Shown: positions 1,992-15,670, counted from the first letter of the stretch. The stretch: DNA of 15,670 nucleotides from a virus (IMGVR_UViG_3300045988_079839:1-15670), one strand, 5' to 3'. Made by a program: numbers and translations. The notes: generated from the sequence alone by a model not told the origin.

Positions 1992-2699
1992 TTACCAAAC
2001 TTTCATGAATAAATCTCGGCAAGCTTCTACAAGTTCTCGGTTGATATTCTGTATTTGGTTTCGATATTCTTCGATTGCTTCACTCGTAGATTTACCTCTT
2101 AGTCCTATTTCTTTTGTCTCTCTGTCTCTTTTGCTGTCTTTGTTGTCGTTTCCTGTATGATTATTTTTTGCGTTTGTTGTGGTATCATTAACAGTTTCTC
2201 CTCTGCTCATAGCACTTGCATAATCTTGTGTTGCAACTGTCACTTGAGGGTTGTCGCTGTCAATATTCTGATAGTTTTGGTTATTTTTTACTTTGCTTTC
2301 TCCTGCATCTGTTGAGTTAGTGGTTGTTTTTTCATTTCCTTTTTCTGCTTCTGTGAATGTTACATATATATTTGTAAAAGGGTTATCGTTTTGAATTGCA
2401 TCATACAGTTTTGTATAATACGGTGTTAATTCATACATTTTTGCTATAAAAGCAGTTTTCCACATTCCTAGCGTCTCAAAGCCTATATAATTATTCCAAT
2501 ATCTGAGTAAAAAATATGCTTTAAAAGTATACAGGTCTTTTCTATCCTCTGAGTAAAAAGGAAAATCAAAATCAAAAAATTTCCCTTGTGTTTTGTCAAT
2601 AATTCTTTGCACAGATAAATCCATACTCCACAGTTCTTGTGACGGGATAAAACTTTCACAAATATCTTTCACAGTGGTAGTGTATTTACTCAATTTCAT
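1992..2699 (-). CDS. Lower collar protein (phi29 gp11-like)
   Basis: It lies directly downstream of the portal gene. Start taken at MKLSKYTT (ATG 2699) behind AAGGAGGG, overlapping the portal stop. The FDFDFPFY...IGFETLGMWK region resembles lower collar proteins as I recall them. Confidence 0.55.
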   Translation of the reverse strand: MKLSKYTTTVKDICESFIPSQELWSMDLSVQRIIDKTQGKFFDFDFPFYSEDRKDLYTFKAYFLLRYWNNYIGFETLGMWKTAFIAKMYELTPYYTKLYDAIQNDNPFTNIYVTFTEAEKGNEKTTTNSTDAGESKVKNNQNYQNIDSDNPQVTVATQDYASAMSRGETVNDTTTNAKNNHTGNDNKDSKRDRETKEIGLRGKSTSEAIEEYRNQIQNINRELVEACRDLFMKVW

Positions 2700-3585
2700 C
2701 ACCCTCCTTACCTTTTTGCATATATTTCTCGGGTACATATCCATTTAGCATAGTAGGCAATTCACTATTGAAGTCTACCGTTACATTAAGATCCCATAAT
2801 TCATTGATAGCATTTGCACATCTTCTTCTTAATGTAAGACCAACGTTTCGATTTGCTTCTACCTGTCCGTTGTTTCCAGCCGTTTCACCTGTCACAAGAC
2901 GTTCACCCTTTTCTACTGGGTTACTTTCATATCCTAAAGATGTTAATACCTGTGACCACAAGTCCCGTAATTCTTGCTCACATTTATCTACAATGTAAGG
3001 CGCTTCCATGTTCAGTGCTTTGATGTCTTTCAAGTTTAGCGAATCAGAAACTTTTAAAACAGGCAAATAATTATCGTACATTTCACCTAAAACTTCAAAG
3101 CTTAATTTTTCATTGTCTGAGGAAGAGAGCACGACAGGAGTACGCTGTGCATACATATTAATATTTTTTGTTTTCCAAGTGTTTGCCATTGCGTCAGCAT
3201 ACATTAATGCCTTATAGTAATATGGCATTGTTGAGTAATTGTTCCATAAGATACAGCTATTTTCTTTACCGTACTCCTCTATATATCCATTAGCTGTATA
3301 AGCGATTCTATCTTGAGGTATATTGTAAATATCGGGTAAACCAGATAATGCAACATTCATGAATGCATACCCTGCAATATCGTCCTTGATGAATACACCC
3401 AAACCGTGCCAAAATAATGTTTGTTCAATGTACATGGGTAAAATTTCTTTGGGTAGATTGTTCCATTTGTACCTATTTACAAATATATCGAAAATATCAT
3501 AAAAAAAGATAGATTTTATTGTTTCAAAATCACTGTTTTTCTTTTTATTGACGTTTCGTTCAAAAATTCGTAACGGATTTCTCAC
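2686..3585 (-). CDS. Portal / upper collar connector (phi29 gp10-like)
   Basis: GTG start behind AGGAGGTG. Recalled gp10 similarity: NMYAQRTPVVLSSSDNEKLS vs [20 protein letters not shown], and EAPYIVDK...EKGERLVTGE vs DAPYVVDK...EKKERMVTDE. The length is similar (299 vs 309 aa). Confidence 0.8.
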   Translation of the reverse strand: MRNPLRIFERNVNKKKNSDFETIKSIFFYDIFDIFVNRYKWNNLPKEILPMYIEQTLFWHGLGVFIKDDIAGYAFMNVALSGLPDIYNIPQDRIAYTANGYIEEYGKENSCILWNNYSTMPYYYKALMYADAMANTWKTKNINMYAQRTPVVLSSSDNEKLSFEVLGEMYDNYLPVLKVSDSLNLKDIKALNMEAPYIVDKCEQELRDLWSQVLTSLGYESNPVEKGERLVTGETAGNNGQVEANRNVGLTLRRRCANAINELWDLNVTVDFNSELPTMLNGYVPEKYMQKGKEGDEIE

Positions 3586-3600
3586 TTATATACACCTCCT

Positions 3601-5217
3601 TTAGTTATTTGATAGAGCGTAGTTCCCTATATCATCAGTATGCCACAAAGTCACACCGTTGTCAAATATATTACGCAATTTCTTTAACTGGTCTAAATCA
3701 ATGTCACCTGTAAAACCGCAATGTGAGGTTTTTACATAATTCCAATACGCTCTTGATTGTAAATAAGGCGTTGTGATTTTGTTAATTGGATATCCAAATT
3801 GTTCAAAAAAACTATCAGCCATTTCTGCAAATTGTCTTTTACATGACATTTCATAGAAATCAACACCACACTCTTTGATGCCTGTCAACACGTTTTCCGA
3901 CAATGCTTTTCCGTGTGTCACTCCTGCATTTCTCGCTCTGTCTGTCTGATTGGCTAACATTCCAAGAGCGTCCCAAAAAGCGTTCGTTGTTTTGCCTAGT
4001 CCGTTAAGTCCTCCTTGTAAGCTTCCTCCTGCCAAGCCTGCTATTGCTGTGCCTGTTCCTATGGTAGCATCTACGGCAGTATGCACTTGTGACAATGCTA
4101 TAGAGCTTTTGTTTTGTGCAAGCCACGCTCTGTACGTATCAGAGGAAAAAGAACACATAGGAAAAGAGGAGTTAATAAGTGCTTCACACATTAAGCCGTG
4201 CCCTAACTCTTCGCGTGTTTTATAATTTTTAGGAGCTGTAAGAACTTGCGGAAGTGTTGCAATTGTTCCATAGCTGTCAAATTCAATAGACTTATCACGG
4301 TTATAACTATATTCATATCTATATATGTGTGTATTTCCTTGGTTGTTATCCGCTAGACAGAATAACCATGGATAAGAGTATAACTTTTTATTTTTTGGTT
4401 TATAACCCTCAAACACATTATCGGATATCTGCATAGATGTTATTTTAGGTTTAATCTCTTTTCCTCCTAACGCAAGAGTGCATAATTTTGGTGACATAAA
4501 TAAACCAATTACAGCATCTTGCGCGCCTTGTTTGTTGTAATCTTCCAACAATGTGTTAATGCCTTTTAGTCCATCTTCGCTTGTGACATCATAATGTCCG
4601 ATACTGCCCCAGCAATAGACGCCATTTTCTACGCGCCCCTCAAACCAACTTTGTTCGGCTGTTCCTCTTGTTACAAAAGCGCAACACTCTGTTGGTGTCA
4701 AGTCTAATTTTTTGTGTCGTGACACAATTGTTTCACCAGTTTCTATATTAACAGGTGTTAGATTTACGCCTATCTCGTCTTTATTTCTAGGGATATGATG
4801 ATATTCCACAAAGCAAGGCTTGATATTTGCATCATAAAAGTTGTTCTGAAAAACGTCTAATGAGAAGTTGATTCTAGTTGTTTTTTCTGAAAGCCATTCT
4901 ATTGAATCAATAAAGCAAAACACCCATTCATTAGAAATACCTGTATTCTGAAAAGCTAAATAATTGAGATTAAGTGCTTTCATTTCTGTGAACGGTACGC
5001 GGATATCATAATTTCCTATTCGAATAGGCGCAAGATGTGATAAATCAACACCGTTAATATGTTTCCGATATAACTCTAAATGGTTCAATAAGTCCTCTTT
5101 TGAGTTGTAAAGTCTAACGTGTTCGTATTCGTCCGACCACGGTACACCACTATACAATCTTAATTTTGTTTCGGGGTTGCGTGGTGCAACCCCTCCTTGT
5201 GTTGGTAAATTTATCAT
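3601..5217 (-). CDS. Tail knob protein (phi29 gp9-like)
   Basis: The C-terminus YWNYVKTSHCGFTGDIDLDQLKKLRNIFDNGVTLWHTDDIGNY closely matches the recalled gp9 C-terminus [42 protein letters not shown]. The N-terminus GVPWSDEYEHVR matches DVPFSNDYKNTR. Confidence 0.85.
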   Translation of the reverse strand: MINLPTQGGVAPRNPETKLRLYSGVPWSDEYEHVRLYNSKEDLLNHLELYRKHINGVDLSHLAPIRIGNYDIRVPFTEMKALNLNYLAFQNTGISNEWVFCFIDSIEWLSEKTTRINFSLDVFQNNFYDANIKPCFVEYHHIPRNKDEIGVNLTPVNIETGETIVSRHKKLDLTPTECCAFVTRGTAEQSWFEGRVENGVYCWGSIGHYDVTSEDGLKGINTLLEDYNKQGAQDAVIGLFMSPKLCTLALGGKEIKPKITSMQISDNVFEGYKPKNKKLYSYPWLFCLADNNQGNTHIYRYEYSYNRDKSIEFDSYGTIATLPQVLTAPKNYKTREELGHGLMCEALINSSFPMCSFSSDTYRAWLAQNKSSIALSQVHTAVDATIGTGTAIAGLAGGSLQGGLNGLGKTTNAFWDALGMLANQTDRARNAGVTHGKALSENVLTGIKECGVDFYEMSCKRQFAEMADSFFEQFGYPINKITTPYLQSRAYWNYVKTSHCGFTGDIDLDQLKKLRNIFDNGVTLWHTDDIGNYALSNN

Positions 5218-5238: not shown

Positions 5239-6507
5239 TTACGCTTTTGTGAAACTTGCCGTTTTTGTGATAGTCTCGTTCGGTCTGTAAATCGCTTTTA
5301 ATACGATAGTTCCTGTCTCGTCCGCTCCCGTATGAAGTAAATGTGTCCCTGGGATAACATATGTCTTTGCAGACGTTGCTCCGCTGTCAACTTCAAGTGT
5401 CACTAAATTCTGATGATATGTTCCTGTTCCGCCTTTAACTGTGACTTCAACTTCCTGTGTCTGTCCTGCTGTGTATGTTCCTGCCGTGACAGTAAGTGTC
5501 GGTGCATCAACAACCGCGTCTGTGGTAAATACTCGAATTGGGTAGAAAGGACTAGCACTGACCATTTCTACCTGTGTATAGAAGTAATTCCAAGATAAGA
5601 CGTTTGCGAGTCGCTGGTCTGTCATGTCTTTGAACTGGTCACGAACATTAAAGAATCGAACATCACAAAGAACGCCTTGTATTGCGCTGTTTGCAAATTT
5701 GTCTACAATAACGGTCTGAACTGCTACGTCTGCTTTGTCCATGTGGAACGCATAGGCTAATGCATCAACACTAATCTGTGCATTTACTTCCGGTGTGGTA
5801 ATCCAAATCAAGTTCGTTGGCATAGCATGTGAAGTTGCTCCTGCCGGATTGTTTTCCGGTAACGGGAATCCAAATTCCCCAACTGCTCTTTTTACTTCAA
5901 TCAATAATTTTTTCGCTGATGCTTCATCAGTAATCGCATCAACAGTTACAGCTGGAAGCACCTCTTTTTCATATCCGACATTAATCAAATCACGCATAGC
6001 AAGATATTCGTCCCAGTTCGCCCCTGTGATAGCACTCTCCATTTTTGCCATAATCATGTCGCGAATTCCATACTCACTAGTAAAAGCTTTTCTCAGATTG
6101 TCATATGTGACCGTGACCGGATACTGGATTTCTAAGTTCACATTATGGAACACTGACATAATGTAGGACTGATACTGCTGAAAAGCGTATTTAAAATCTG
6201 CCTGTGAATCATAGACGCGACCTTTGCACATATTTACGTAAGTTTCTTCGTGCGTTTCACCGTAACGCATAGGTTCTTTTTTGAATCGCGCTAACGGGTT
6301 TCTCCATGCGATACTATCTACCGTCTGCATACCGATACGATTAATCAATGACGGTACAATTTCATTTCTTACAGGGGCAAAATTCAGAATGTTATCATAC
6401 ACCGCCTGCAAATTGTCTGAGACTTCTACAGGTAGATGATTCTGCACCTCAAAAGAAAGTTCCTGCTTTATTGCTTTTAAAATATTTTTATTTGTTGCGT
6501 CTGCCAT
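5239..6507 (-). CDS. Major capsid protein (phi29 gp8-like) with C-terminal Ig-like domain
   Basis: VPSLINRIGMQTVDSIAWRNPLARFKKEPMRYGETHEE matches recalled gp8 [38 protein letters not shown]. The C-terminal Thr/Gly-rich beta region is like the BIG2 domain of gp8. Confidence 0.85.
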   Translation of the reverse strand: MADATNKNILKAIKQELSFEVQNHLPVEVSDNLQAVYDNILNFAPVRNEIVPSLINRIGMQTVDSIAWRNPLARFKKEPMRYGETHEETYVNMCKGRVYDSQADFKYAFQQYQSYIMSVFHNVNLEIQYPVTVTYDNLRKAFTSEYGIRDMIMAKMESAITGANWDEYLAMRDLINVGYEKEVLPAVTVDAITDEASAKKLLIEVKRAVGEFGFPLPENNPAGATSHAMPTNLIWITTPEVNAQISVDALAYAFHMDKADVAVQTVIVDKFANSAIQGVLCDVRFFNVRDQFKDMTDQRLANVLSWNYFYTQVEMVSASPFYPIRVFTTDAVVDAPTLTVTAGTYTAGQTQEVEVTVKGGTGTYHQNLVTLEVDSGATSAKTYVIPGTHLLHTGADETGTIVLKAIYRPNETITKTASFTKA

Positions 6508-6846: not shown

Positions 6847-6875
6847 ATTATATCACCACGGCAAGAAAAAGTAAA
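6847..6875 (-). promoter_or_regulatory. Candidate internal promoter ahead of scaffold/capsid genes
   Basis: On the minus strand: TTTACT (6870-6875), 17-nt spacer, TGa, TATAAT (6847-6852). The TGA stop of the upstream gene supplies the TGn element. Confidence 0.45.
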
Positions 6876-7857
6876 GAGGCATTTTTCTTTTTCTTGAATG
6901 TGGATGGATTGGGTACGGTGATAATGTCTGTAAATAAGCATACCATTTTAGCGCGTTCTTTTTTCTATCCTCTTCTTTTTCCACACCTGCACGCTCAAAA
7001 TTCTTTAAAAATACCGACGCTAAATAATCGGGTTCTTTTGTGGACTTTCGAAACTCTTCCCATGATACTGGATATTTTATTGTTTCTATCCATTGTCCAC
7101 TACTTACGGTTTCTTCATCAAGCCAAACACATTGATAATAACCATCTGTGATATCGTACCCGTGAGCGTTCGCCCAATCTGTATAGACTGTAGCTGGTGT
7201 CCACTGTACAAGACCATAGCCACCATTATAGTTCCCCTCTTTTAAGGACTGCCATAATTCGGGGTTGATATTAGATTCTATCTCCATATTCCCCAACATT
7301 CCTGCAATGGCGTTCAACGTGAAATCTTTGAAAAACATGGTACTATAGAAAACATAAGCATTGTTTTTCATCTCATCTTCTGTAAGATAACGGTTTCCAT
7401 GAATCCATTCAAGGGGCCCTGCACTGTCGCCATAACGATATATCTTTGTCCATGCGGACGGTTTGGAAACATATGTATTAATGCTGACCTGCTCGGGTAA
7501 TGGATAACGCCCACTGTGCGCTCCCATAGTGACACCGCCACCCCCAACACCGTTCCCACTATACACCATTTCTGTATGACCACTACGCCATACAATGTCC
7601 CCTGCCTGCCAAGCCTCATTGATACTAATCTCTTTAAATCCTGCCTGTAATAGATATCCCTCTTCTGTTCTTGTGGTGAACCATGGGTTCACTGAAAAGA
7701 ACCCAGCTTCTGTAAGTGCTTTTGAAATAAAAGAGCTACAGTCATAATAAGTAATACCGTTCACGGTCTGCCCTCTTCGGTATTGCTGAGAATATCCAAT
7801 GTTGGGGGCATTGCACGCATTGACCGCCCACTGATAGGCTACATTAATATTTGGCAT
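6853..7857 (-). CDS. Tail-associated peptidoglycan hydrolase: N-terminal NlpC/P60-type cysteine peptidase + C-terminal phage tail lysozyme domain (functional analogue of phi29 gp13)
   Basis: YDCSSFIS (catalytic Cys context) and SGHTEMVY (His) resemble NlpC/P60. GMLGNMEIESNINPE...GGYGLVQWTP resembles the phage tail lysozyme domain. This is the only gene that ends in TGA. Confidence 0.7.
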   Translation of the reverse strand: MPNINVAYQWAVNACNAPNIGYSQQYRRGQTVNGITYYDCSSFISKALTEAGFFSVNPWFTTRTEEGYLLQAGFKEISINEAWQAGDIVWRSGHTEMVYSGNGVGGGGVTMGAHSGRYPLPEQVSINTYVSKPSAWTKIYRYGDSAGPLEWIHGNRYLTEDEMKNNAYVFYSTMFFKDFTLNAIAGMLGNMEIESNINPELWQSLKEGNYNGGYGLVQWTPATVYTDWANAHGYDITDGYYQCVWLDEETVSSGQWIETIKYPVSWEEFRKSTKEPDYLASVFLKNFERAGVEKEEDRKKNALKWYAYLQTLSPYPIHPHSRKRKMPLYFFLPW

Positions 7858-7871
7858 TTCATACCCTCCTT

Positions 7872-7895
7872 AAAATGTTTCACGTGAAACATTTT
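7872..7895. promoter_or_regulatory. Palindrome site A: 24-bp perfect palindrome AAAATGTTTCACGTGAAACATTTT
   Basis: The two halves are exact reverse complements. It lies between the endolysin stop and the tail hydrolase SD (AAGGAGGG starts 1 nt after the site on the minus strand). Confidence 0.8.
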
Positions 7896-7910
7896 GTTCC
7901 ACGTGAATAA
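7895..7910. promoter_or_regulatory. Palindrome site G: degenerate copy TGTTCCACGTGAATAA
   Basis: It shares the CACGTG core, 7 of 8 left-arm bases and 6 of 8 right-arm bases. Its centre lies 19 bp from the centre of site A. Confidence 0.45.
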
Positions 7911-7913
7911 AAA

Positions 7914-8903
7914 TTAAAGCATATATAACATATCTTTCGCGTAAACGAATTCAGTTCCACAAGCGCGTGCCAGTCCTCCGCCAAATGTTCCTGGACATTC
8001 AACCCCGTTCGGGTCTTTTCCCTGTAATAAACATAAGATTTCAAGAGCTGTGACAAGATACTGTGTTTCACCTCTTTTTACATAATGTTTTCCTGCTTTT
8101 GCTCTTGTTTTTTTACCTACAATACCGTCTTCTGCAATGGTATAGCCATAGTCTTCGTTCATAGCTCTTTGCACCACGCGAACTGCCATTCTTTTTGTAT
8201 TTCTACCGACAATACCGTCAACGGCAATCTGTACGCCTGTAAAATTAATGGCGTGCTGTTGACCCAAAGCAATCAATTCATTTCTTGGTTTTACGTGGCT
8301 AATAGGAGGCTGTGGTGTAGTAGGTGTAGTGCTTGAAGCTCCATAGTCTTTGTAAACGTGGTTCACATCACATCTTCCATTGATGCCATCAACCGAGCCA
8401 TTACTGGAATACTGCCATATAGCTACATTGTCTACACCTAAAGCATTAGCGTAGCGTGCAATCCATAAATCATACCCCCAACTTTCACCGATGTAATTCT
8501 CATACCATGATTTACTAGCGTAAATTCCAGCTTTATAACCATGCGTTAACATAGCATCGCAAAAACGCTTTGCGTTGTGCTTTGCTACAGACTGTGTTCC
8601 TTTTTCCTCGCTGTCAAAAAACACAGGGAGATTAGGAGTGTGTCCCTGTAACAATCTAAGGCAGTGATTAATTTCACCCTCAATTCTAGCTGTTGTTTTT
8701 GCGTAAGAATAAAAATAGACTCCATACGGGATACCCAATCGCTCGCATTCACTCACGTTTCGACTCCATTGTTTATCATCTTGTGATGCCATATCTTGTC
8801 CATATCCGCAACGTATGATTACATAGTCCACAGCATTTTTTACTTTTTCAAAATCAATCACTCCATTATGATACGAAACATCAACCGCTTTTTTTACACT
8901 CAT
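7914..8903 (-). CDS. Endolysin: GH25 muramidase with C-terminal peptidoglycan-binding repeats
   Basis: The N-terminus VDVSYHNGVIDFEKVKNAVDYVIIRCGYG is GH25-like. The C-terminal repeated DGIVGRNT / DGIVGKKT motifs are PG_binding_1-like. It follows the holin. Confidence 0.8.
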   Translation of the reverse strand: MSVKKAVDVSYHNGVIDFEKVKNAVDYVIIRCGYGQDMASQDDKQWSRNVSECERLGIPYGVYFYSYAKTTARIEGEINHCLRLLQGHTPNLPVFFDSEEKGTQSVAKHNAKRFCDAMLTHGYKAGIYASKSWYENYIGESWGYDLWIARYANALGVDNVAIWQYSSNGSVDGINGRCDVNHVYKDYGASSTTPTTPQPPISHVKPRNELIALGQQHAINFTGVQIAVDGIVGRNTKRMAVRVVQRAMNEDYGYTIAEDGIVGKKTRAKAGKHYVKRGETQYLVTALEILCLLQGKDPNGVECPGTFGGGLARACGTEFVYAKDMLYML

Positions 8904-8906
8904 TTT

Positions 8907-9131
8907 TTAATCCTCCTTTTTCTGTTCAAATGTGTCACAAATGCGCTGTAATGCAAGTGTGTTATTGTTCACTGCTTCTGTAATGTCTGACATTTCCTGT
9001 TTGTGCGATTCGTTTAATTTGTCCATGCGAGCGTCATTCTTATCTTCACGATATTTCACGTACCACATAGAAGCAATCGCTACAACTGTAGGTAACCCCA
9101 ACGTGTTAATAGCTGTCATGATTTCTTGCAT
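8907..9131 (-). CDS. Holin, BhlA/UviB-like
   Basis: A 74-aa protein with a single N-terminal TM segment (LGLPTVVAIASMWYV) followed by a charged helical tail (KYREDKNDARMDKL...), as in BhlA/UviB holins. It lies immediately upstream of the endolysin. Confidence 0.6.
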   Translation of the reverse strand: MQEIMTAINTLGLPTVVAIASMWYVKYREDKNDARMDKLNESHKQEMSDITEAVNNNTLALQRICDTFEQKKED

Positions 9132-9151
9132 GATATCACCTCCTTTTTTCT

Positions 9152-9180
9152 ATCATAACACAAATAGAATTATTTGTAAA
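9152..9180 (-). promoter_or_regulatory. Late (lysis/structural) promoter
   Basis: On the minus strand: TTTACA (9175-9180), 17-nt spacer, TGt, TATGAT (9152-9157). It is followed by AAGGAGGTG and the holin ATG at 9131. Confidence 0.6.
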
Positions 9181-9185
9181 TAAAA

Positions 9186-9203
9186 ATGTTTCACGTGAAA
9201 CAC
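9186..9203. promoter_or_regulatory. Palindrome site B: ATGTTTCACGTGAAACAC (16-bp perfect core 9187-9202)
   Basis: Verified by hand. It lies just upstream of the -35 of the holin promoter. Confidence 0.75.
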
Positions 9204-9218
9204 TATCACGTGAAACAT
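9204..9218. promoter_or_regulatory. Palindrome site C: half-site TATCACGTGAAACAT
   Basis: The right arm GTGAAACAT is exact and the left arm matches 5 of 9. Its centre is 15 bp from the centre of site B. Confidence 0.5.
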
Positions 9219-9337
9219 ATTGTACGTTACAAAATAATCAATGCAAAGGGAACGCAACGCCAAAAATTGATATCAGACTACTTGTCTATGTGCGTGTATA
9301 TCAATTACAATGCCCGTATTATTTTGGGTACGATATT

Positions 9338-9366
9338 ATGATAACATATATCATTTGAAATGTCAA
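9338..9366 (-). promoter_or_regulatory. Strong sigma-A type promoter overlapped by palindrome site D
   Basis: On the minus strand: TTGACA (9361-9366), 17-nt spacer, TGt, TATCAT (9338-9343). Site D overlaps the -35 by 2 nt. Confidence 0.6.
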
Positions 9367-9384
9367 TGTTTCACGTGAAACATT
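9365..9384. promoter_or_regulatory. Palindrome site D: 20-bp perfect palindrome AATGTTTCACGTGAAACATT
   Basis: An exact inverted repeat. It overlaps the TAA stop of the ATPase gene (9383-9385) and the -35 of the promoter at 9338-9366. Confidence 0.8.
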
Positions 9385-10429
9385 AAAAAGATATCACATC
9401 AAATATCATGTTCTTACACTCTAAATTTTCAAACAGAAGCAACCCTCTGTTAAAATATTCTCGTAACATTGTAACAATGTAATGTGTTGAATTGACGCGA
9501 ATAGCTGTATTGTCTATTACATCAGTTTTTGTAAAGCATATCCGCGTAGGGAAACTATCATCTGCACCTGTTGATACATATAGACATACATCATATTTTC
9601 TGACGTTATATAGATTATCGTTATACTTTATCGTACAAATATAACGTGACTGTCCCGATGGTTTACCAATCAAACATTCATTATCATTTAGATATTTGTT
9701 TTCACTGGCGTACTCGTTATAGTCAGCACCTCGAAAAGCTCGCGCAATAGCACTTTCCTTATACGCTGTTGAAGCACTTTCATTGTAAGTTCGCTCAAAT
9801 ACCCAACCGTCACCACGTAAAAATTTAGTATCTCTCTTTAACATTTTATTGATTCCAAATACGCTATAATAAGGGTTTAGCAATGACACTGTATTCGATG
9901 CCATATATAGCATTACTCTCCTGTGCTGTTTACCATGCCCAGAACTGATAGTTGTAAGCAACGATAACAGTTTATTTACTTCATTAGGTAAATATATATT
10001 ATCTTCGTCTTGGTACTCGTCAAAAAATACGGAACGGATATTGACGAATAATCCACGCATTTTTTTATACTTTCTCGCAACAGATAAAGCTAAACAATAC
10101 CCACATGGCTCTTCATTGATAAATAACTGCACTAACGCGCCACGCATCAGACTTTTTTCCGTCATGACATAACCGTCAAATTTTTCCGCAATGTCGCCAA
10201 AATAAGTGTCCGCACAATTCTTCATATCAACAACATTTCTATACAAATAGATAAACTGATTTTCTGGTCTGTATTTATCTTTTAAAAAATCAGAAACTTG
10301 TCTACATTTAATCGAATAACTTTTACCCGCTGTTCTGTTGCCGTCCACAATAAAAATGTCGGGTGTATTCCCATATTTATCTTTCATAGTTAATAATCTC
10401 TCACAGTGATAATAACCATCATTCATCAT
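9383..10429 (-). CDS. DNA encapsidation ATPase (phi29 gp16-like)
   Basis: Walker A is GNRTAGKS and Walker B is VFFDEY. Recalled gp16 similarity: QFIYLYRN vs QFIYVRRY, YLPNEVNKLLSLL vs YIPNEVSALLNLM, SNTVSLLNPYY vs SNAVSVVNPYF. Start taken at ATGATG (10429) behind GGAGGTG rather than 10456. Confidence 0.85.
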   Translation of the reverse strand: MMNDGYYHCERLLTMKDKYGNTPDIFIVDGNRTAGKSYSIKCRQVSDFLKDKYRPENQFIYLYRNVVDMKNCADTYFGDIAEKFDGYVMTEKSLMRGALVQLFINEEPCGYCLALSVARKYKKMRGLFVNIRSVFFDEYQDEDNIYLPNEVNKLLSLLTTISSGHGKQHRRVMLYMASNTVSLLNPYYSVFGINKMLKRDTKFLRGDGWVFERTYNESASTAYKESAIARAFRGADYNEYASENKYLNDNECLIGKPSGQSRYICTIKYNDNLYNVRKYDVCLYVSTGADDSFPTRICFTKTDVIDNTAIRVNSTHYIVTMLREYFNRGLLLFENLECKNMIFDVISF

Positions 10430-10442
10430 TTTAGCACCTCCA

Positions 10443-10458
10443 TTCACGTGAAACATTT
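10443..10458. promoter_or_regulatory. Palindrome site E: half-site TTCACGTGAAACATTT
   Basis: The right arm is exact and the left arm matches 5 of 9. It abuts the ATPase SD on the minus strand (CACGTGAATGGAGGTG). Confidence 0.5.
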
Positions 10459-10460
10459 AT

Positions 10461-10490
10461 TTTATAAAAGAGGTGGCATATAGCCACCCC
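10461..10490 (-). terminator. Intrinsic terminator after the p6-like/SSB-like gene pair
   Basis: On the minus strand GGTGGC-TATAT-GCCACC (10472-10488) is followed by TCTTTTATAAAAT. Confidence 0.65.
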
Positions 10491-10532
10491 TTTAGAAGAA
10501 GAGAATTAAAATGGTATTCCCACGGCATCATA

Positions 10533-10883
10533 TTATAAATTTGATACGTCTAAGGTACAATTAATATAATCGCGTCCTGCTTTTGTCTTTCCGCTAATTT
10601 TAATGATAGAGAATTTTTCCCCGTCCATTACACTTTCAATGTCTTTCAAAGACTGTCTAAAGGTTGCGGACTGCCCCGAATAGACTTTCTTATCTGGTGT
10701 GATAATGCTCACAATCTCCTGTGTATCGCCTTTGTCTTTAATATCATCAAATATAAGAAATCCGTCAACTGGGATAGATGCACCATCAGCGATATTTTTT
10801 AAAGGCTCAATGTCAGGCGCTGTGGTCATAAGATACTTCTCGACCTTTGTAAACTCTCTACTCATTTCTTTAATTTCTACCAT
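10533..10883 (-). CDS. ssDNA-binding protein (phi29 p5-like)
   Basis: 116 aa. Recalled p5 similarity: KNIADGASI vs KNLPDGTII, QEIVSIITPDKKVYSGQSATF vs EETVTTIFAADGSLYSAISKTV, FSIIKISGKTKAGRDY vs FKVKVVQGTSSKGNVF. It sits next to the p6-like gene. Confidence 0.5.
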   Translation of the reverse strand: MVEIKEMSREFTKVEKYLMTTAPDIEPLKNIADGASIPVDGFLIFDDIKDKGDTQEIVSIITPDKKVYSGQSATFRQSLKDIESVMDGEKFSIIKISGKTKAGRDYINCTLDVSNL

Positions 10884-10908
10884 AGTTCTTTACCTCCTGT
10901 TTTTCCTA

Positions 10909-11208
10909 TTAATCTTCCTTTTTTAATTCCTGCAACTCTGCTTCGGTAACAATTTTTTCACTCTTGACATTTGAATTAAGTAAGAACTGCTCATCTGTCA
11001 TTGTACGTCTTTCCAGTTTAAACTTAATATCTAATATGGAAACAATGTCTCCTTTGTAGTGCTTTTCAATCAAGATTTCCGCTTTATCTCTTGTCTTACA
11101 GTTTGGTAATTTCTCGTCAAAGCAATCTTTCTTGATTTCACCTGTCTCCCTGTCCTTGTAGATTCTTTCTACAGAAACCTCCGCTGTGACTAATGTCCTT
11201 GTAAACAT
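10909..11208 (-). CDS. Histone-like dsDNA-binding protein (phi29 p6-like)
   Basis: 99 aa with an acidic C-terminal tail. EKHYKGDIVSILDIK matches recalled p6 KRKYKGEPVQVVSVE. It lies upstream of the SSB-like gene, as in phi29. Confidence 0.4.
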   Translation of the reverse strand: MFTRTLVTAEVSVERIYKDRETGEIKKDCFDEKLPNCKTRDKAEILIEKHYKGDIVSILDIKFKLERRTMTDEQFLLNSNVKSEKIVTEAELQELKKED

Positions 11209-11264
11209 CTTGTTTTTCCTCCCTTTTTTCTGTTTCTTTGAGTGTGAATTGTAATGTAATATGT

Positions 11265-11331
11265 TTTATTTATTACATTATTATAATATCACAACAATTA
11301 AATGTAGTCAAGTGTTATGTTATAATTTTTT
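11265..11331. repeat. Direct repeat copy A of the early-promoter module (~67 bp)
   Basis: 11265-11288 is identical to 11541-11564 (24/24). The remaining 43 positions match at about 70 percent, including AGTCAAGT and TTAT..ATAATTTTTT. Confidence 0.8.
11283..11311 (-). promoter_or_regulatory. Early promoter P1 (drives the p6-like and SSB-like genes)
   Basis: On the minus strand: TTGACT (11306-11311), 17-nt spacer, TGa, TATTAT (11283-11288), then AAT. Confidence 0.6.
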
Positions 11332-11349
11332 ATTTTTTATCTAAATCTC

Positions 11350-11518
11350 TTACATATGTACTATCTGTATCAACATATAAAAACCATCACGAATAGTGAT
11401 AAGTTTAGCCGTAATCTCAGCGTTTTTTAAATTTGTGTCAGTTATTACATTACTACTATGTGACATTGCGCTTACACCGTACAAGCTGTTTAACAGACAT
11501 TTAATTTTTTTTACTCAT
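11350..11518 (-). CDS. Possible small protein gene requiring a +1 shift at an A8 run (or a homopolymer miscall); otherwise non-coding
   Basis: SD AAAAAGGAGGG is followed by ATG (11518) and a frame that stops after 5 codons (MSKKN). The +1 frame is open for 54 codons (11514-11353) and ends at TAA 11350-11352. The junction is the A8 run at 11505-11512. Confidence 0.3.
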
Positions 11519-11540
11519 CTTTTTTCCCTCCTTTTTCTAC

Positions 11541-11607
11541 TTTATTTATTACATTATTATAATAACACGGCGCTAAAATATAGTCAAGTATTATATCATA
11601 ATTTTTT
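11541..11607. repeat. Direct repeat copy B of the early-promoter module
   Basis: See copy A. Copy B overlaps the last codons of the polymerase gene. Confidence 0.8.
11559..11587 (-). promoter_or_regulatory. Early promoter P2
   Basis: On the minus strand: TTGACT (11582-11587), 17-nt spacer, TGt, TATTAT (11559-11564), then AAT. Confidence 0.55.
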
Positions 11608-13477
11608 TATCTTTTTGTGTGTGAATATTAAAGTCTTTATTTCTTAATATAATCCCACCTTTTACTCGCTCTGCTTTTAAGTTACAACTATCCATACTAA
11701 GTCCTGTAGATAACTCAGAGATATCTTTTTCTTCTTCAATAAATTTTCGCTTAGCTTGACTACTCATTCCACAAGCTTTAATATCAAGATAAGGCACACA
11801 TGGCTTATGATTTTCTTCAACTATATGTTCTGCATAAGTCTTTTGTCGCTCATAATATGCAAAATCAAATGTACTTTCACATTTCCAACAACAAAAATTC
11901 GTCGGATGTTCTACAACCATATTCGCTTTATCAAGTCCTATCAAATGAATCGAATCTGTATCCGCATAGCAAAATCGGTCATAATTCGCCATAGCGTGGC
12001 GTATTGTAAAGTTCATGGCATAAGATGTAATGGCGCTACCTATCGGGATATACCCAACTTTCTTATCATGTTCTTCATGCAAAATAAATCTAATAATCCC
12101 ATCTTCATCAAGATAAGGCTCTTTATAGGAAGAGTTATCTGACATAGCAAATTTTCCATAAAGATTATTCAAAAAAAGTTTCGATTTCTGTCTCTTAAAA
12201 CCTTTTGATATTCTCTTCTCTTCTCCATATTTATCTATATATTCATCGAAAAAACCCTCTCTAGCGTAGAACCATACATAATCATAGATAACCAAATCAT
12301 AGATATCATAAGTTTCTTGGAATAACTTCCAGTCAGTACAAGTCATAGTAAGAGTTATATTTGTGTCATGTATCTGCCCATCAATATCACGATAATACCG
12401 ATAGTATTCACCTTTATATCTGACGTTAGAGCTATATAAATTTTCATTCGCCTTATATAATGCACTATGCCTAACATGAAGTCACGGGAACGCTCCTTTT
12501 TTAAGTTGAAAACGACAATTGAATCGTATAAAAAAATATTTATTAGTAGAGCTTATAAGTTCATCGGGTGGCGCTCCCCTGTGATATTGCCCGTGACCGA
12601 ACGGATATTTGTTGCCGCTAATGCTATGCATCATTGATGGGTACAGAGAATTTACGTCAAACACTAACCCCCAACCCACTACCGTATGCGCGTATTGAGG
12701 ATTTACATAACACCACCCTCCATGATATGATTTATGAACATAATCCCACTGATTCCACACGCCTGTGCTTGATTCGTCTAAATAATCCTCTCTAATATCG
12801 GGAAATAACTTGTCATATTGTTTATTTTCGTAAAAGCCTTTGAATTCTGAGAGACAACACGAACCTATAGTTAGTTTATCGTGATTTTCATTAAACATCA
12901 TTTCTAAAGCTTCTTTTAACACTAATACATCATTTTCGATATATTTCTTTTCGTCTTCTGATATCTCACAATAAGCGTATCTCTCACCCTCATAGTCCAT
13001 ATCTAATTTTTGATGCTTTGTCCCAAATGATTTTCCGATATCTTTTAATGACGATGGCATAAGCTTTAAAGAGTTTCGAATTTCTAAAAATGTCTTATTC
13101 CATTTGAGTTTAATCCAATACCATGACCCCATATCTGATATACAAGTTTGAAATTCTTTTGAATTCATTTCTTTATCTTTACAGTGTACCCAACGCCACC
13201 CCTCTTTTAACAAAAAATCCACGATAAAAGAACCGTCAAAAGCAAGATTATGAAAGTATAACACATTGTTGCCTTTCATTGTCAAAAACCTGTTTAAAAA
13301 ATCTCTTATCGAATGAGTTATAGTGACAGTTTCTGTGTCATCGTATAAAGCCACGTCAGCACCAGACCAAACTTCTGTACTATCTTGTTTTTTACCTTTT
13401 TCTTGCTCTACTTTTTCACCCCATACCGTTGTTTCAAAATCGCACGCCCAAAAGGTTATCTTCTTTTTTCGTGGCAT
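11591..13477 (-). CDS. Protein-primed family-B DNA polymerase (phi29 gp2-like), one reading frame interrupted by a single in-frame TGA
   Basis: Motifs present: Exo I CDFETT, Exo II HNLAFDGSF, Exo III YIENDVLVL, motif A DVNSLYPSMM, motif B KLFLNNLYGKF, motif C YADTDSIH, and KxY as KTYAEH. Track ORFs 12482-13477 and 11591-12346 are in the same frame, and the 45 codons between them are all sense codons. Confidence 0.85.
12482..12484 (-). other. In-frame TGA codon within the DNA polymerase frame (context UGA-C)
   Basis: Plus-strand tca at 12482-12484. The 135 nt between this codon and the ATG at 12346 equal 45 codons in the same frame. Confidence 0.95.
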
Positions 13478-13493
13478 TTATAATCACCTCTTT

Positions 13494-14204
13494 TTATTCA
13501 TTCTCAACAACAATATCTTGTTCCTGTAGAAATACTTGAAAATCTTCTGTTGTGGAAAGAACGCCCATTCTCTGTAAAATGTTCCAAAACACAGCGTCAA
13601 CTGTAGCTTTATCCATATAAGGCTCGGTTGGGAATGCTTCCGGTTCTTTAGCATAAGTATACGCAAATAACGCTCTTTCTCTTTCTGTTGCATTTGATAA
13701 TAAAGCGTCTGTTTTTTCTCTTAACCAGTACGCTGTTTTTGGTGCAAAACTTCCTAAAGAGTCATACCATGTGTCTATAATAACTTCATAGTCTAGTACA
13801 GGTGTTGCTTCAATAACTACTATACCTGTCCTTTGTAACTTTTTCAATTCTTCAACCGTAGTATAACCTTGTATTCTAGCATATTCCTGTTCTTGCGGAG
13901 TTAATTTAATAAAAACTCTGTTTCTTTCAAGAGCGTGTTTACGTCCATATTCTTTAGAAGTTATAACCTCGCCAGTAAGCATATCAACAACCGTTGCATT
14001 TTTTCGTATTTCTTTTGCCGTCTGCTTTTTAATTCTATCAATTGAAGCTTGTGTTGGATTTTTTACTCGCTTAATTATCTTTACTTGTACACCTTGTTTT
14101 TGTTGATTTCTAACACGAGATAGATATTTAGTGTATTCGTGAGAATATTCTTTTTGAATAATCTCCGCTTTTGTTTTCTTCTTTTTAATACGCTTATTAG
14201 CCAT
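13494..14204 (-). CDS. Putative terminal protein (protein primer)
   Basis: 236 aa located immediately upstream of the polymerase, like phi29 gene 3. It has a very basic N-terminus and an acidic C-terminus. No clear sequence match to the TP sequence I recall, so the call rests on synteny. Confidence 0.5.
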   Translation of the reverse strand: MANKRIKKKKTKAEIIQKEYSHEYTKYLSRVRNQQKQGVQVKIIKRVKNPTQASIDRIKKQTAKEIRKNATVVDMLTGEVITSKEYGRKHALERNRVFIKLTPQEQEYARIQGYTTVEELKKLQRTGIVVIEATPVLDYEVIIDTWYDSLGSFAPKTAYWLREKTDALLSNATERERALFAYTYAKEPEAFPTEPYMDKATVDAVFWNILQRMGVLSTTEDFQVFLQEQDIVVENE

Positions 14205-14207
14205 CTT

Positions 14208-14402
14208 TTAGTCACCCTCCTTTTGCACTTTTCTTAAGAGTAAGCCATGCGGTACACGAGTGTACTCGATACTGTCTCCGGGGTGAATATCTAAATCACG
14301 TATTGATTCTTTTGGTATCATAACACGGGCAGTGTAGCCACCTGTTCCCCCTTTAGTGAACATTACTTTATAGCGTAATAATCGGTTTGTTAATTTTGCC
14401 AT
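14208..14402 (-). CDS. AbrB/SpoVT/MazE-type DNA-binding protein
   Basis: 64 aa. ARVMIPKESIRDLDIHPGDSIEY fits the swapped-hairpin AbrB-like motif (xxxxIPKexrexlgixxGDxve). Confidence 0.55.
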   Translation of the reverse strand: MAKLTNRLLRYKVMFTKGGTGGYTARVMIPKESIRDLDIHPGDSIEYTRVPHGLLLRKVQKEGD

Positions 14403-14413
14403 GATTTTCCTCC

Positions 14414-14878
14414 TTATAAAATATTAAATAGTTTCCATGTGAAATCTGAAAAGTGTTCCGCTATGAATGATACAGAAGATAAAAAAAGATACAGTAAAAA
14501 TGTTGCCATAATAATCACGGATAAAATACCTAAGAAAGAAGATATCTTTTCTAATTTGGTATATGGTTCTTTTTCTTCTGTAGGTGTATGCCTTTTTATC
14601 CAGTCTATTTCCGATTCGTGTAATGTTTCACGTGAAACATTATTGACATCTGGTTTGTTAGGGCTAACTGTCTCTATATAGTCTTTAATTCCATCTGACG
14701 GATTGGCGTAGCTATGTCCATCAAAACCCACATAAATGTTTTTATTAGTATACAAATTTTCTACCCAGTAGGGTTCGTCTACAAATAAGGCTATGTAGTT
14801 GTTTAGTGAGTTTTCAGTGTGAAAGTCGTGTATTTCTACGCCAAAATCTGTGATATTATGTAATCTGTATTTAATCAT
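14414..14878 (-). CDS. Early membrane-anchored protein of unknown function
   Basis: 154 aa with a C-terminal TM segment FLGILSVIIMATFLLYLFLSSVSFI. SD is AAGGAGAGG. The start overlaps the upstream stop (ATGATTAA). Confidence 0.6.
   Translation of the reverse strand: MIKYRLHNITDFGVEIHDFHTENSLNNYIALFVDEPYWVENLYTNKNIYVGFDGHSYANPSDGIKDYIETVSPNKPDVNNVSRETLHESEIDWIKRHTPTEEKEPYTKLEKISSFLGILSVIIMATFLLYLFLSSVSFIAEHFSDFTWKLFNIL
14595..14623 (-). promoter_or_regulatory. Weak candidate internal promoter with the same geometry to site F as the 9338-9366 promoter has to site D
   Basis: On the minus strand: TTACAC (14618-14623), 17-nt spacer, TGg, GATAAA (14595-14600). The palindrome centre is 11 bp upstream of the -35 centre in both cases. 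Confidence 0.25.
14621..14642. promoter_or_regulatory. Palindrome site F: 22-bp perfect palindrome TAATGTTTCACGTGAAACATTA inside a coding region
   Basis: An exact inverted repeat. It lies within the 14414-14878 gene and encodes ...NNVSRETL... Confidence 0.8.
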
Positions 14879-15519: not shown

Positions 15520-15670
15520 TTTTTATTCCTCCTTATTTTATTAGGTTTCCTTGTTTCTATAATTATAATACCACACCTCTTATTATTTATCAAGTATTTT
15601 TTGTGCTTTTTTAATCAAAAGGGGGACGTGTTCTCATTGGGAATAACGTAAGCCCTCTCCATGCTCTGTC
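15520..15670. repeat. Right inverted terminal repeat (151 bp, perfect)
   Basis: It is the reverse complement of 1-151. Confidence 0.97.
15565..15593 (-). promoter_or_regulatory. Sigma-A type early promoter inside the right ITR
   Basis: It mirrors 78-106: TTGATA (15588-15593), 17-nt spacer, TGg, TATTAT (15565-15570). Confidence 0.6.

Follow-up and report, generated by a model that had tools for sequence, protein, structure and literature searches.

Chromosomal-type parS sites in a linear phi29-like podovirus genome: candidate loading sites for host ParB

Why should a viral genome of 15.7 kb carry one and the same palindrome in several copies, most of them intergenic? The question is raised by the stretch IMGVR_UViG_3300045988_079839:1-15670 (15,670 nucleotides; this whole stretch is called the window below), in which the 16-mer TGTTTCACGTGAAACA occurs four times without mismatch and three times in degenerate form, and in which a first-pass annotation had seen the operator set of an early/late switch. 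In sequence, this 16-mer is the canonical parS site of bacterial chromosomes, letter for letter. We favour the reading, to which we give a probability of about 0.65 as a whole, that the copies are loading sites for the ParB (Spo0J) protein of the host, carried by a virulent-type phi29-like podovirus without a ParB of its own. The basis in hand is the identity with parS, the enrichment of the motif, its five fixed positions, its recurrence in independent phi29-like lineages and the fact that no ParB-like protein was found in a Pfam scan of 20 open reading frames (ORFs) or a PHROGs scan of 10 small or unassigned ORFs. ParB binding, the identity of the host and the biological outcome are inferred.

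The repeated palindrome and its match to parS

The window contains exactly seven CACGTG hexamers (at 7881, 7900, 9192, 9207, 9372, 10445 and 14629), and all of them fall within copies of the motif. Perfect copies lie at 7876-7891, 9187-9202, 9367-9382 and 14624-14639, and copies with three mismatches at 7895-7910, 9202-9217 and 10440-10455. Base composition predicts approximately 5e-6 perfect copies, against the four observed, and dinucleotide-shuffled sequences gave a mean of 0.15 matches with up to three mismatches, with seven being reached in 0/200 shuffles. The first-pass annotation had described these four perfect and three partial copies, including extended palindromes of 24, 20 and 22 bp, had reported no further CACGTG and had judged the copy number to be beyond chance; we could confirm all of these statements and every coordinate. 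It had also placed the sites correctly in relation to the genes, namely before the Shine-Dalgarno (SD) sequence of the packaging ATPase gene, after the ATPase stop codon and on a -35 element, before the holin promoter, before the SD of the tail hydrolase gene, and once inside an early gene.

Nearly all real genes, including every gene that adjoins a site, are carried on the minus strand. Site A is a perfect 24-bp palindrome (7872-7895, core 7876-7891) in the 56 nt that separate the endolysin stop codon (7914) from the SD of the gene for the gp13-like tail lysozyme, and the partial copy A' (TGTTCCACGTGAATAA; 7895-7910) pairs with it on the minus-strand transcript in a 13-bp hairpin. Site B, a perfect 16-mer at 9187-9202, ends 6 nt upstream of the -35 element TTTACA (9180-9175) of a promoter-like site before the holin gene; together with the partial copy B' (9202-9218), which retains TCACGTGAAACAT, it also gives a 13-bp hairpin. 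Site C, a perfect 20-bp palindrome (9365-9384, core 9367-9382), comes directly after the ATPase stop codon (9383-9385), and its final two bases double as the first two of a -35 element, TTGACA (9366-9361). The decayed site D (CCATTCACGTGAAACA; 10440-10458) lies just 5' of the ATPase SD. Finally, site E is a perfect 22-bp palindrome (14621-14642, core 14624-14639) within the early minus-strand ORF 14414-14878, where it encodes N-V-S-R-E-T-L.

Compared with the chromosomal-type parS consensus, the 16-bp palindrome tGTTNCACGTGAAACa (PMC7022226, PMC10197239), four of the sites match at 16/16 positions and three match partially. The string TGTTTCACGTGAAACA is given as the chromosomal parS in a review of chromosomal ParB proteins (PMC7022226), and the same 16-mer was used in work on CTP-dependent spreading (PMC7053999). 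A study of 12 gut bacteria that used it as the query located 1-10 parS sites in each genome; ParABS homologues are present in 12/12 of these bacteria, among which are Blautia coccoides, Enterocloster, Flavonifractor and C. innocuum (PMC10197239). Furthermore, when the literature was searched for the string, almost all of the matches listed were ParB/parS studies, in which it figures as chromosomal parS. The sites in the window are therefore very probably ParB-binding parS sites. The earlier proposal of a sequence-specific dimeric DNA-binding protein is in keeping with this, as the identical sequence at all sites points to one, and the suggestion that a host regulator might be hijacked gains support from the evidence. 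The binding protein, which had been left unnamed, would be ParB/Spo0J, whose parS the 16-mer matches; no phage protein tracks the motif.

Conservation in close relatives and recurrence in other lineages

A megablast search with the whole window as query returned zero matches among GenBank phages, and the capsid protein is at most 31% identical to those of isolates in the GenBank phage set (approximately 26% to that of phi29). Protein searches, as opposed to a nucleotide search, led to at least 80 close relatives in IMG/VR, with genomes of 14-16 kb, capsid identities of 89-98% and a median nucleotide identity of approximately 85%. The motif search in related phages that had been recommended in the first-pass annotation thus proved productive: perfect copies are present in 80/80 of these relatives, at 2-6 per genome, and in other phi29-like lineages as well. 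The perfect sites occupy five syntenic positions, with site A found in 76/80 relatives, site B in 76/80, site C in 72/80, and site E in 50/62 of those covering its position. Site D is perfect in 54/76 covering relatives, with 15 more having a single mismatch, and alignment with relatives places in the window a 7-nt deletion that took the left end of the site. The partial copy at 10440 is thus, judging from the alignment, a decayed fifth site, because it is perfect in most relatives and the window carries the deletion.

The clade as a whole has 332 perfect sites in its 1.1 Mb, where 4e-4 would be expected. Pairwise identity is higher within the motif than in the flanks at site B (0.997 vs 0.873) and site C (0.981 vs 0.885), and the contrast is clearest at site E (0.974 vs 0.773), where the flanks are coding. 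The conserved sequence extends to AA-16mer-TT in 90-99% of 336 sites, and the inner A...T flank recurs in phi29, B103, CPS2 and CH17P1. The A' variant is shared by at least 52 relatives; in B', the pairing half of 11-13 nt is kept in the relatives and the loop side varies. Among 71 variant sites with one or two mismatches, a symmetric compensatory change was seen in 0, and the mismatches cluster at three outer positions per half-site. This argues for a protein-binding site rather than a selected stem. By these comparisons of sequence, the palindromes are a real, selected feature.

The motif is not confined to this clade. We compared 18 phi29-like phage isolates, counting as a site any parS with at most one mismatch, and found sites in phi29, B103, Nf, VMY22, BC-5, BeachBum, CPS2, CI644P5, CI55P1, CH17P1 and CUB-FM, although the lone copy in BC-5 and in BeachBum has its mismatch in the central CACGTG. 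The hosts are C. perfringens for CPS2, C. innocuum for CI644P5, a Clostridium for CI55P1, Hungatella for CH17P1 and E. faecium for CUB-FM. No site at this threshold was present in PumA1, Aurora, CPP2, CPD2, Cp-7 or two actinophages. An association with spore-forming hosts was considered and set aside: sites occur in 11/14 phages of spore formers vs 1/4 phages of non-spore formers, in a sample that is small and phylogenetically confounded.

CPS2 carries three perfect and three one-mismatch copies. In this phage (L095), three near-identical modules of approximately 45 bp (5788-5828, 10564-10604 and 13595-13635) each contain two parS 25 bp apart, and each doublet module stands directly 5' of an SD, the genes concerned being those for holin, appendage and terminase. 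In L237-L253, L291 and L298, parS doublets or triplets with a spacing of 25-28 bp follow the capsid gene. When IMG/VR was scanned for the exact 16-mer, phi29-type hallmark genes were found in 26 of the first 120 stretches among the matches listed. Four other IMG/VR stretches without phi29 hallmark genes nevertheless have 4-5 perfect parS, which lie within approximately 0.8-1 kb in L121 and L161 and are spread over 2.4-3 kb in L123 and L120; these four probably represent centromere arrays of plasmid or origin type, or else host DNA in contigs classed as 'viral'.

The CH17P1-type gut lineage is a second, independent one, and it supplies a natural control. Gut contigs with a capsid identity of 74-97% to CH17P1 have parS in 28/30 cases, whereas those with an identity of 58-61% have it in 3/50 (701 kb in total). 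In view of this split, the motif is accessory and clade-specific, and by no means a by-product of composition or genome architecture. Our literature search found no survey of parS in phi29-like phages beyond the Bacillus phi29/Nf work, most subscription journals being outside its reach.

What ParB loading might bring, and the rival explanations

If the sites do load host ParB, then the following course of events may be envisaged. Once the DNA is injected, dimers of host ParB would nucleate at the perfect sites, four or five in number; if chromosomal ParB is a guide, they would go on to form CTP-dependent clamps and slide along the 15.7-kb genome. To the ParABS/SMC segregation machinery, the phage DNA would then pass for part of the host origin region and would be held and moved as such, and the genome could be passed to daughter cells or to the forespore during delayed lytic growth, either as in the 'spore entrapment' of phi29 or in a general carrier state. 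Two of the sites would have a second job, as each, paired with its half copy, would form a 13-bp transcript hairpin, and one of these, with its U-run, would end a small conserved RNA. To retain clamps on a linear genome, terminal proteins or other roadblocks would have to act as stoppers, or ParB would have to be reloaded steadily from several sites. That the phage gains segregation or entrapment of its genome in this way is, in our judgement, an even bet. For entrapment of this kind, the window has the expected features of a protein-primed phi29-like podovirus with several parS, as seen in the Pfam matches, the 151-nt inverted terminal repeats and the sites themselves.

Several observations weigh against this scheme. 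In vitro, ParB-CTP clamps build up only on DNA with blocked ends and run off open ends (PMC7053999). Spo0A boxes (TGTCGAA), the second arm of the phi29 strategy, number 0 in the window vs 1.75 expected, and even the relaxed pattern TGNCGAA is found only twice vs 6.2 expected. The presence of parS in CUB-FM, a phage of the non-sporulating E. faecium, implies that spore entrapment is not the whole story, and a sister clade of 50 genomes is almost entirely without parS, so that the function of the sites must be dispensable. Sites B and C touch promoter elements, which could indicate a regulatory rather than a segregational role. The clues to the host are also weak: the contig of one relative was binned into an 'uncultured Clostridia' metagenome-assembled genome, and among named bacteria, the closest homologues of the endolysin, at 44-46% identity, belong to Blautia. 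The host is probably a gut member of the Clostridia; both ParABS and this parS consensus are general among gut Clostridia (PMC10197239).

ParB might bind and yet the payoff be regulatory or antagonistic. In that case, ParB at sites B and C would occlude the promoters of a small RNA and of lysis and structural genes, tying late expression to host ParB and the cell cycle, or ParB would be titrated from the host origin by the many phage copies of the site. The overlap of site C with the -35 element of the best promoter in the window and the end of site B 6 nt before the next one invite such a view, as do CUB-FM, where the -35 region of a promoter-like site with TGnTATAAT is overlapped by the perfect parS, and the density of five sites per 15 kb, far above the 1-10 per chromosome in gut bacteria. 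However, sites A, D and E are not on promoter-like sequence, the sites of other clades lie between a stop codon and the next SD without a promoter, and the promoters themselves are consensus matches only. In phi29, the sole experimentally studied case, parS is tied to segregation and transcription control to Spo0A boxes, according to the summary in PMC2731898. On balance, a regulatory or antagonistic payoff seems unlikely to us. Far less probable still is the idea that a dimeric regulator encoded by the phage, such as the AbrB/MazE-like product of the early ORF 14208-14402 (the sole recognisable small DNA-binding product), binds the sites as early/late operators. The sites do stand at operon boundaries, and the AbrB/MazE-type gene co-occurs with the motif in 66/80 close-clade contigs, but the motif is the universal host parS, no p4-family protein was found in the scans of 20 ORFs with Pfam and of 10 small or unassigned ORFs with PHROGs, the early/middle promoters carry a different repeated module and the sister clade lacks the motif. 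We rejected the AbrB/MazE-like protein as the binder, since its homologues are limited to the close clade and one other locus and are undetectable in phi29, CPS2, CUB-FM, CH17P1 and CI55P1. The early/late operator set of the first-pass annotation was not upheld, as a sister clade without the motif fits an accessory function better and separate repeated promoter modules exist. Nor does the comparison made there with the p4 sites of phi29, said to be of unrelated sequence, survive: the motif occurs in phages with unrelated early genes, phi29 itself carries parS, and the right phi29 counterparts are its parS/Spo0J sites.

The remaining alternative is that the palindromes act only in RNA, as hairpins for termination, processing or mRNA stabilization, with a common sequence that stems from the copying of one intergenic module and a match to parS that is incidental. 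On the minus-strand transcript, the B+B' hairpin has a folding energy of -18.2 kcal/mol (z = -5.2) and is followed by UUUUUAUUU; a terminator scan picks it at 9218..9186, with 13 pairs and the tail TTTTTATTT, and among the motif copies it alone combines a hairpin and a U-run as an intrinsic terminator does. The A+A' hairpin (-16.7 kcal/mol, z = -5.45) is situated past the endolysin stop codon, and just UUUU stands before the SD that comes next. The CH17P1-type clades have parS doublets or triplets that form hairpins of 18-20 bp and approximately -30 kcal/mol between the stop codon of the capsid gene and the SD that follows it, and parS-less sister clades have strong hairpins of unrelated sequence in the same post-capsid slot, as if a hairpin were wanted there whatever its sequence. 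A hairpin role, however, does not fix a sequence, and the exact parS 16-mer is found in Bacillus, C. perfringens, Enterococcus and gut phages, when an arbitrary 16-bp palindrome would coincide with parS with a chance of approximately 1 in 65,000 (4^-8). In addition, folding is weak at the single sites, both at C (-8.9 kcal/mol, z = -2.8) and at E (-9.7 kcal/mol, z = -1.9), with no U-run at either, site E lies within a coding region, and the lack of compensatory change in 71 variant sites is at odds with a selected stem. A role in RNA alone is thus improbable. The RNA-level role that had been offered earlier as the alternative holds for the two doublets A+A' and B+B' and fails for the single sites. 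A' and B' are best read as the second arms of RNA hairpins, and in our reading, hairpins are needed at certain gene boundaries, some lineages fill the slot with two parS, and the doublets may serve both purposes. Such a requirement accounts for the half copies, but not for why the stem should be parS in Bacillus, Clostridium, Enterococcus and gut phages alike.

Loading of host ParB, as we prefer to read the sites, has a precedent. According to the summary in PMC2731898 of Meijer et al. (2005, EMBO J), parS occurs five times in phi29, and transfer of the phage genome to the prespore involves Spo0J; in the phi29 sequence we found four copies of TGTTTCACGTGGAACA, the reverse complement of the B. 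subtilis-type TGTTCCACGTGAAACA. phi29 and the window phage alike are podoviruses of the protein-primed type that have no phage ParB and carry the host parS in several copies, flanked as A-16mer-T, and in both one parS adjoins the packaging ATPase gene (gp16), directly after its stop codon, as site C does. However, phi29 uses the asymmetric variant TGTTCCACGTGAAACA, mostly within genes and coupled to Spo0A boxes at promoters, whereas the window has the fully symmetric consensus, mostly between genes, with two hairpin-forming doublets, no Spo0A box and probably a gut bacterium as host. Compared with parS/ParB-CTP complexes on chromosomes, the 16 bp are identical and the sites are likewise clustered, and nucleation followed by CTP-dependent sliding clamps would be expected by analogy; the setting differs, being a 15.7-kb linear viral genome with terminal-protein-capped ends rather than circular DNA around oriC, with approximately five sites per 15 kb instead of 1-10 per chromosome. 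Plasmid-prophages such as P1 and N15 are temperate and have their own ParA and ParB and their own centromere sequences. Their partition cassettes would resemble the present case in that a ParB-centromere interaction keeps the phage genome in dividing cells, but the window phage has no ParA or ParB gene and copies the host site. Finally, sites for host master regulators are reported in lytic phages, with Spo0A boxes in phi29/Nf and CtrA sites in phages of Alphaproteobacteria (PMC9437464). The window phage might similarly read the state of the host cell through sites for a host DNA-binding protein, although Spo0A and CtrA are transcription factors acting on phage promoters, whereas ParB is primarily a segregation protein for which a transcriptional effect is just possible.

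The principle itself is thus already known, the parS sites of phi29 having been described in 2005. What is new is an abundant uncultured gut clade with, by sequence comparison, the densest and most perfect array among the phages compared, together with the sharp presence or absence between sister clades, the recurrent use of doublets as hairpins and the location of sites around a gene for a candidate packaging RNA. Should host ParB load on these genomes, common small gut phages regarded as 'strictly lytic' could ride on the chromosome-segregation machinery of their hosts. This may explain persistence in spores or carrier cells, person-to-person spread with spore-forming Clostridia and co-binning with bacterial genomes, and a mechanism studied so far in one Bacillus phage family would extend to many uncultured lineages, with the sister-clade pattern as a natural experiment. 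Contigs of parS-bearing phages can also mislead origin-finding or binning tools that use parS as a chromosomal marker. A bolder proposal, which we put forward tentatively and think rather doubtful in its entirety, is that parS arrays form a widespread accessory module of Firmicutes phi29-like phages, repeatedly gained and lost, including in abundant uncultured clades of the human gut and on non-sporulating hosts, that confers on formally virulent phages a ParB-dependent carrier or dormancy state, in which they persist in spores or dividing cells and do not integrate; in the present clade, the array would also be wired to the promoter and terminator of the candidate packaging RNA and to the lysis promoter, so that loading of ParB holds back packaging and lysis.

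The ATPase-holin gap and the wider genome

Sites B and C lie in a gap of 250 nt between the ATPase and holin genes that is highly conserved and in which no gene is called in relatives. Read on the minus strand, the order is site C, a promoter-like site, a candidate RNA of approximately 150 nt, the B+B' hairpin and a second promoter-like site (9180..9152) for holin. The first promoter-like site (9338-9366, minus) adjoins site C and is a strong one of sigma-A type, with TTGACA, a 17-nt spacer and TATCAT with an upstream TG (TGnTATCAT); at 11/12 it is the best promoter match in the window, and it would drive a conserved non-coding RNA. The candidate structured RNA (9178-9332, minus), recognized by its fold and conservation, has the terminator-like B+B' hairpin as its 3' end. 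Its consensus fold consists of a terminal helix and an internal hairpin, with compensatory changes at approximately five pairs, and on this model a packaging RNA is a plausible candidate identity. An Rfam search (E <= 1) returned nothing credible for the motif or for the 9132-9382 gap. ParB at C or B would sit on or beside the -35 elements, and so a transcriptional side effect is possible.

A different repeated element is found elsewhere in the window. Two 74-nt promoter modules, at 11265-11338 and 11541-11614, are 82% identical, and weaker copies stand at 11430-11465 and 15540-15575. They are found in the 380-nt gap that follows the polymerase gene and close to the right end. Each 74-nt module has TTGACT-17-TATTAT (minus) and the shared downstream sequence TATTATAATAATGTAATAAATAAA. 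These modules are likely phage-specific early or middle promoter/operator units, and they are better candidates for phage-specific control elements than the parS motif.

In the post-capsid slot of one parS-less sister clade, the hairpin of L254 (9564-9588) is an inverted pair of perfect DnaA boxes (TTATCCACA), of which L255 and L257 have a one-mismatch version. We dropped DnaA boxes as a general case of parallel hijacking, since they are not enriched in any clade and the L254 pair may be chance.

As regards the genome as a whole, perfect inverted terminal repeats of 151 nt (1-151 and 15520-15670), of the protein-primed type, and the hallmark genes mark the window as a complete linear phi29-like podovirus genome of 15.7 kb. 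Pfam matches identify the gp10 connector (2686-3585), the gp9 tail knob (3601-5217), the Phi29_MCP capsid protein (5239-6507), the gp13-like tail lysozyme (6853-7857, minus), a GH25 endolysin (7914-8903, minus, stop at 7914), the gp16 packaging ATPase (9383-10456 as called, minus) and a type-B DNA polymerase (11591-13477, minus); a weak Pfam match among the ORFs suggests an SSB. The ATPase start at 10456, inside the motif, was discarded as an artefact of ORF calling, as the SD GGAGGTG and the 354-aa product of relatives place the start at approximately 10429. A tRNA scan of the window found none.

The phage also uses ordinary terminators, to judge from two conventional G+C-rich hairpins, one after the SSB gene at 10462-10495 (AAAGGGGTGGCTATATGCCACCTCTTT followed by UUUAU) and one at 332-363, where the plus-strand ORF 151-330 and the minus-strand late operon converge. 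Finally, the DNA polymerase gene contains one in-frame TGA (12482-12484, minus), at a position where 67/67 aligned relatives have TGG (Trp) and where the polymerase of relatives is intact (628 aa). Going by this alignment, the TGA is peculiar to this genome, as a nonsense variant or a read error, and does not reflect recoding.

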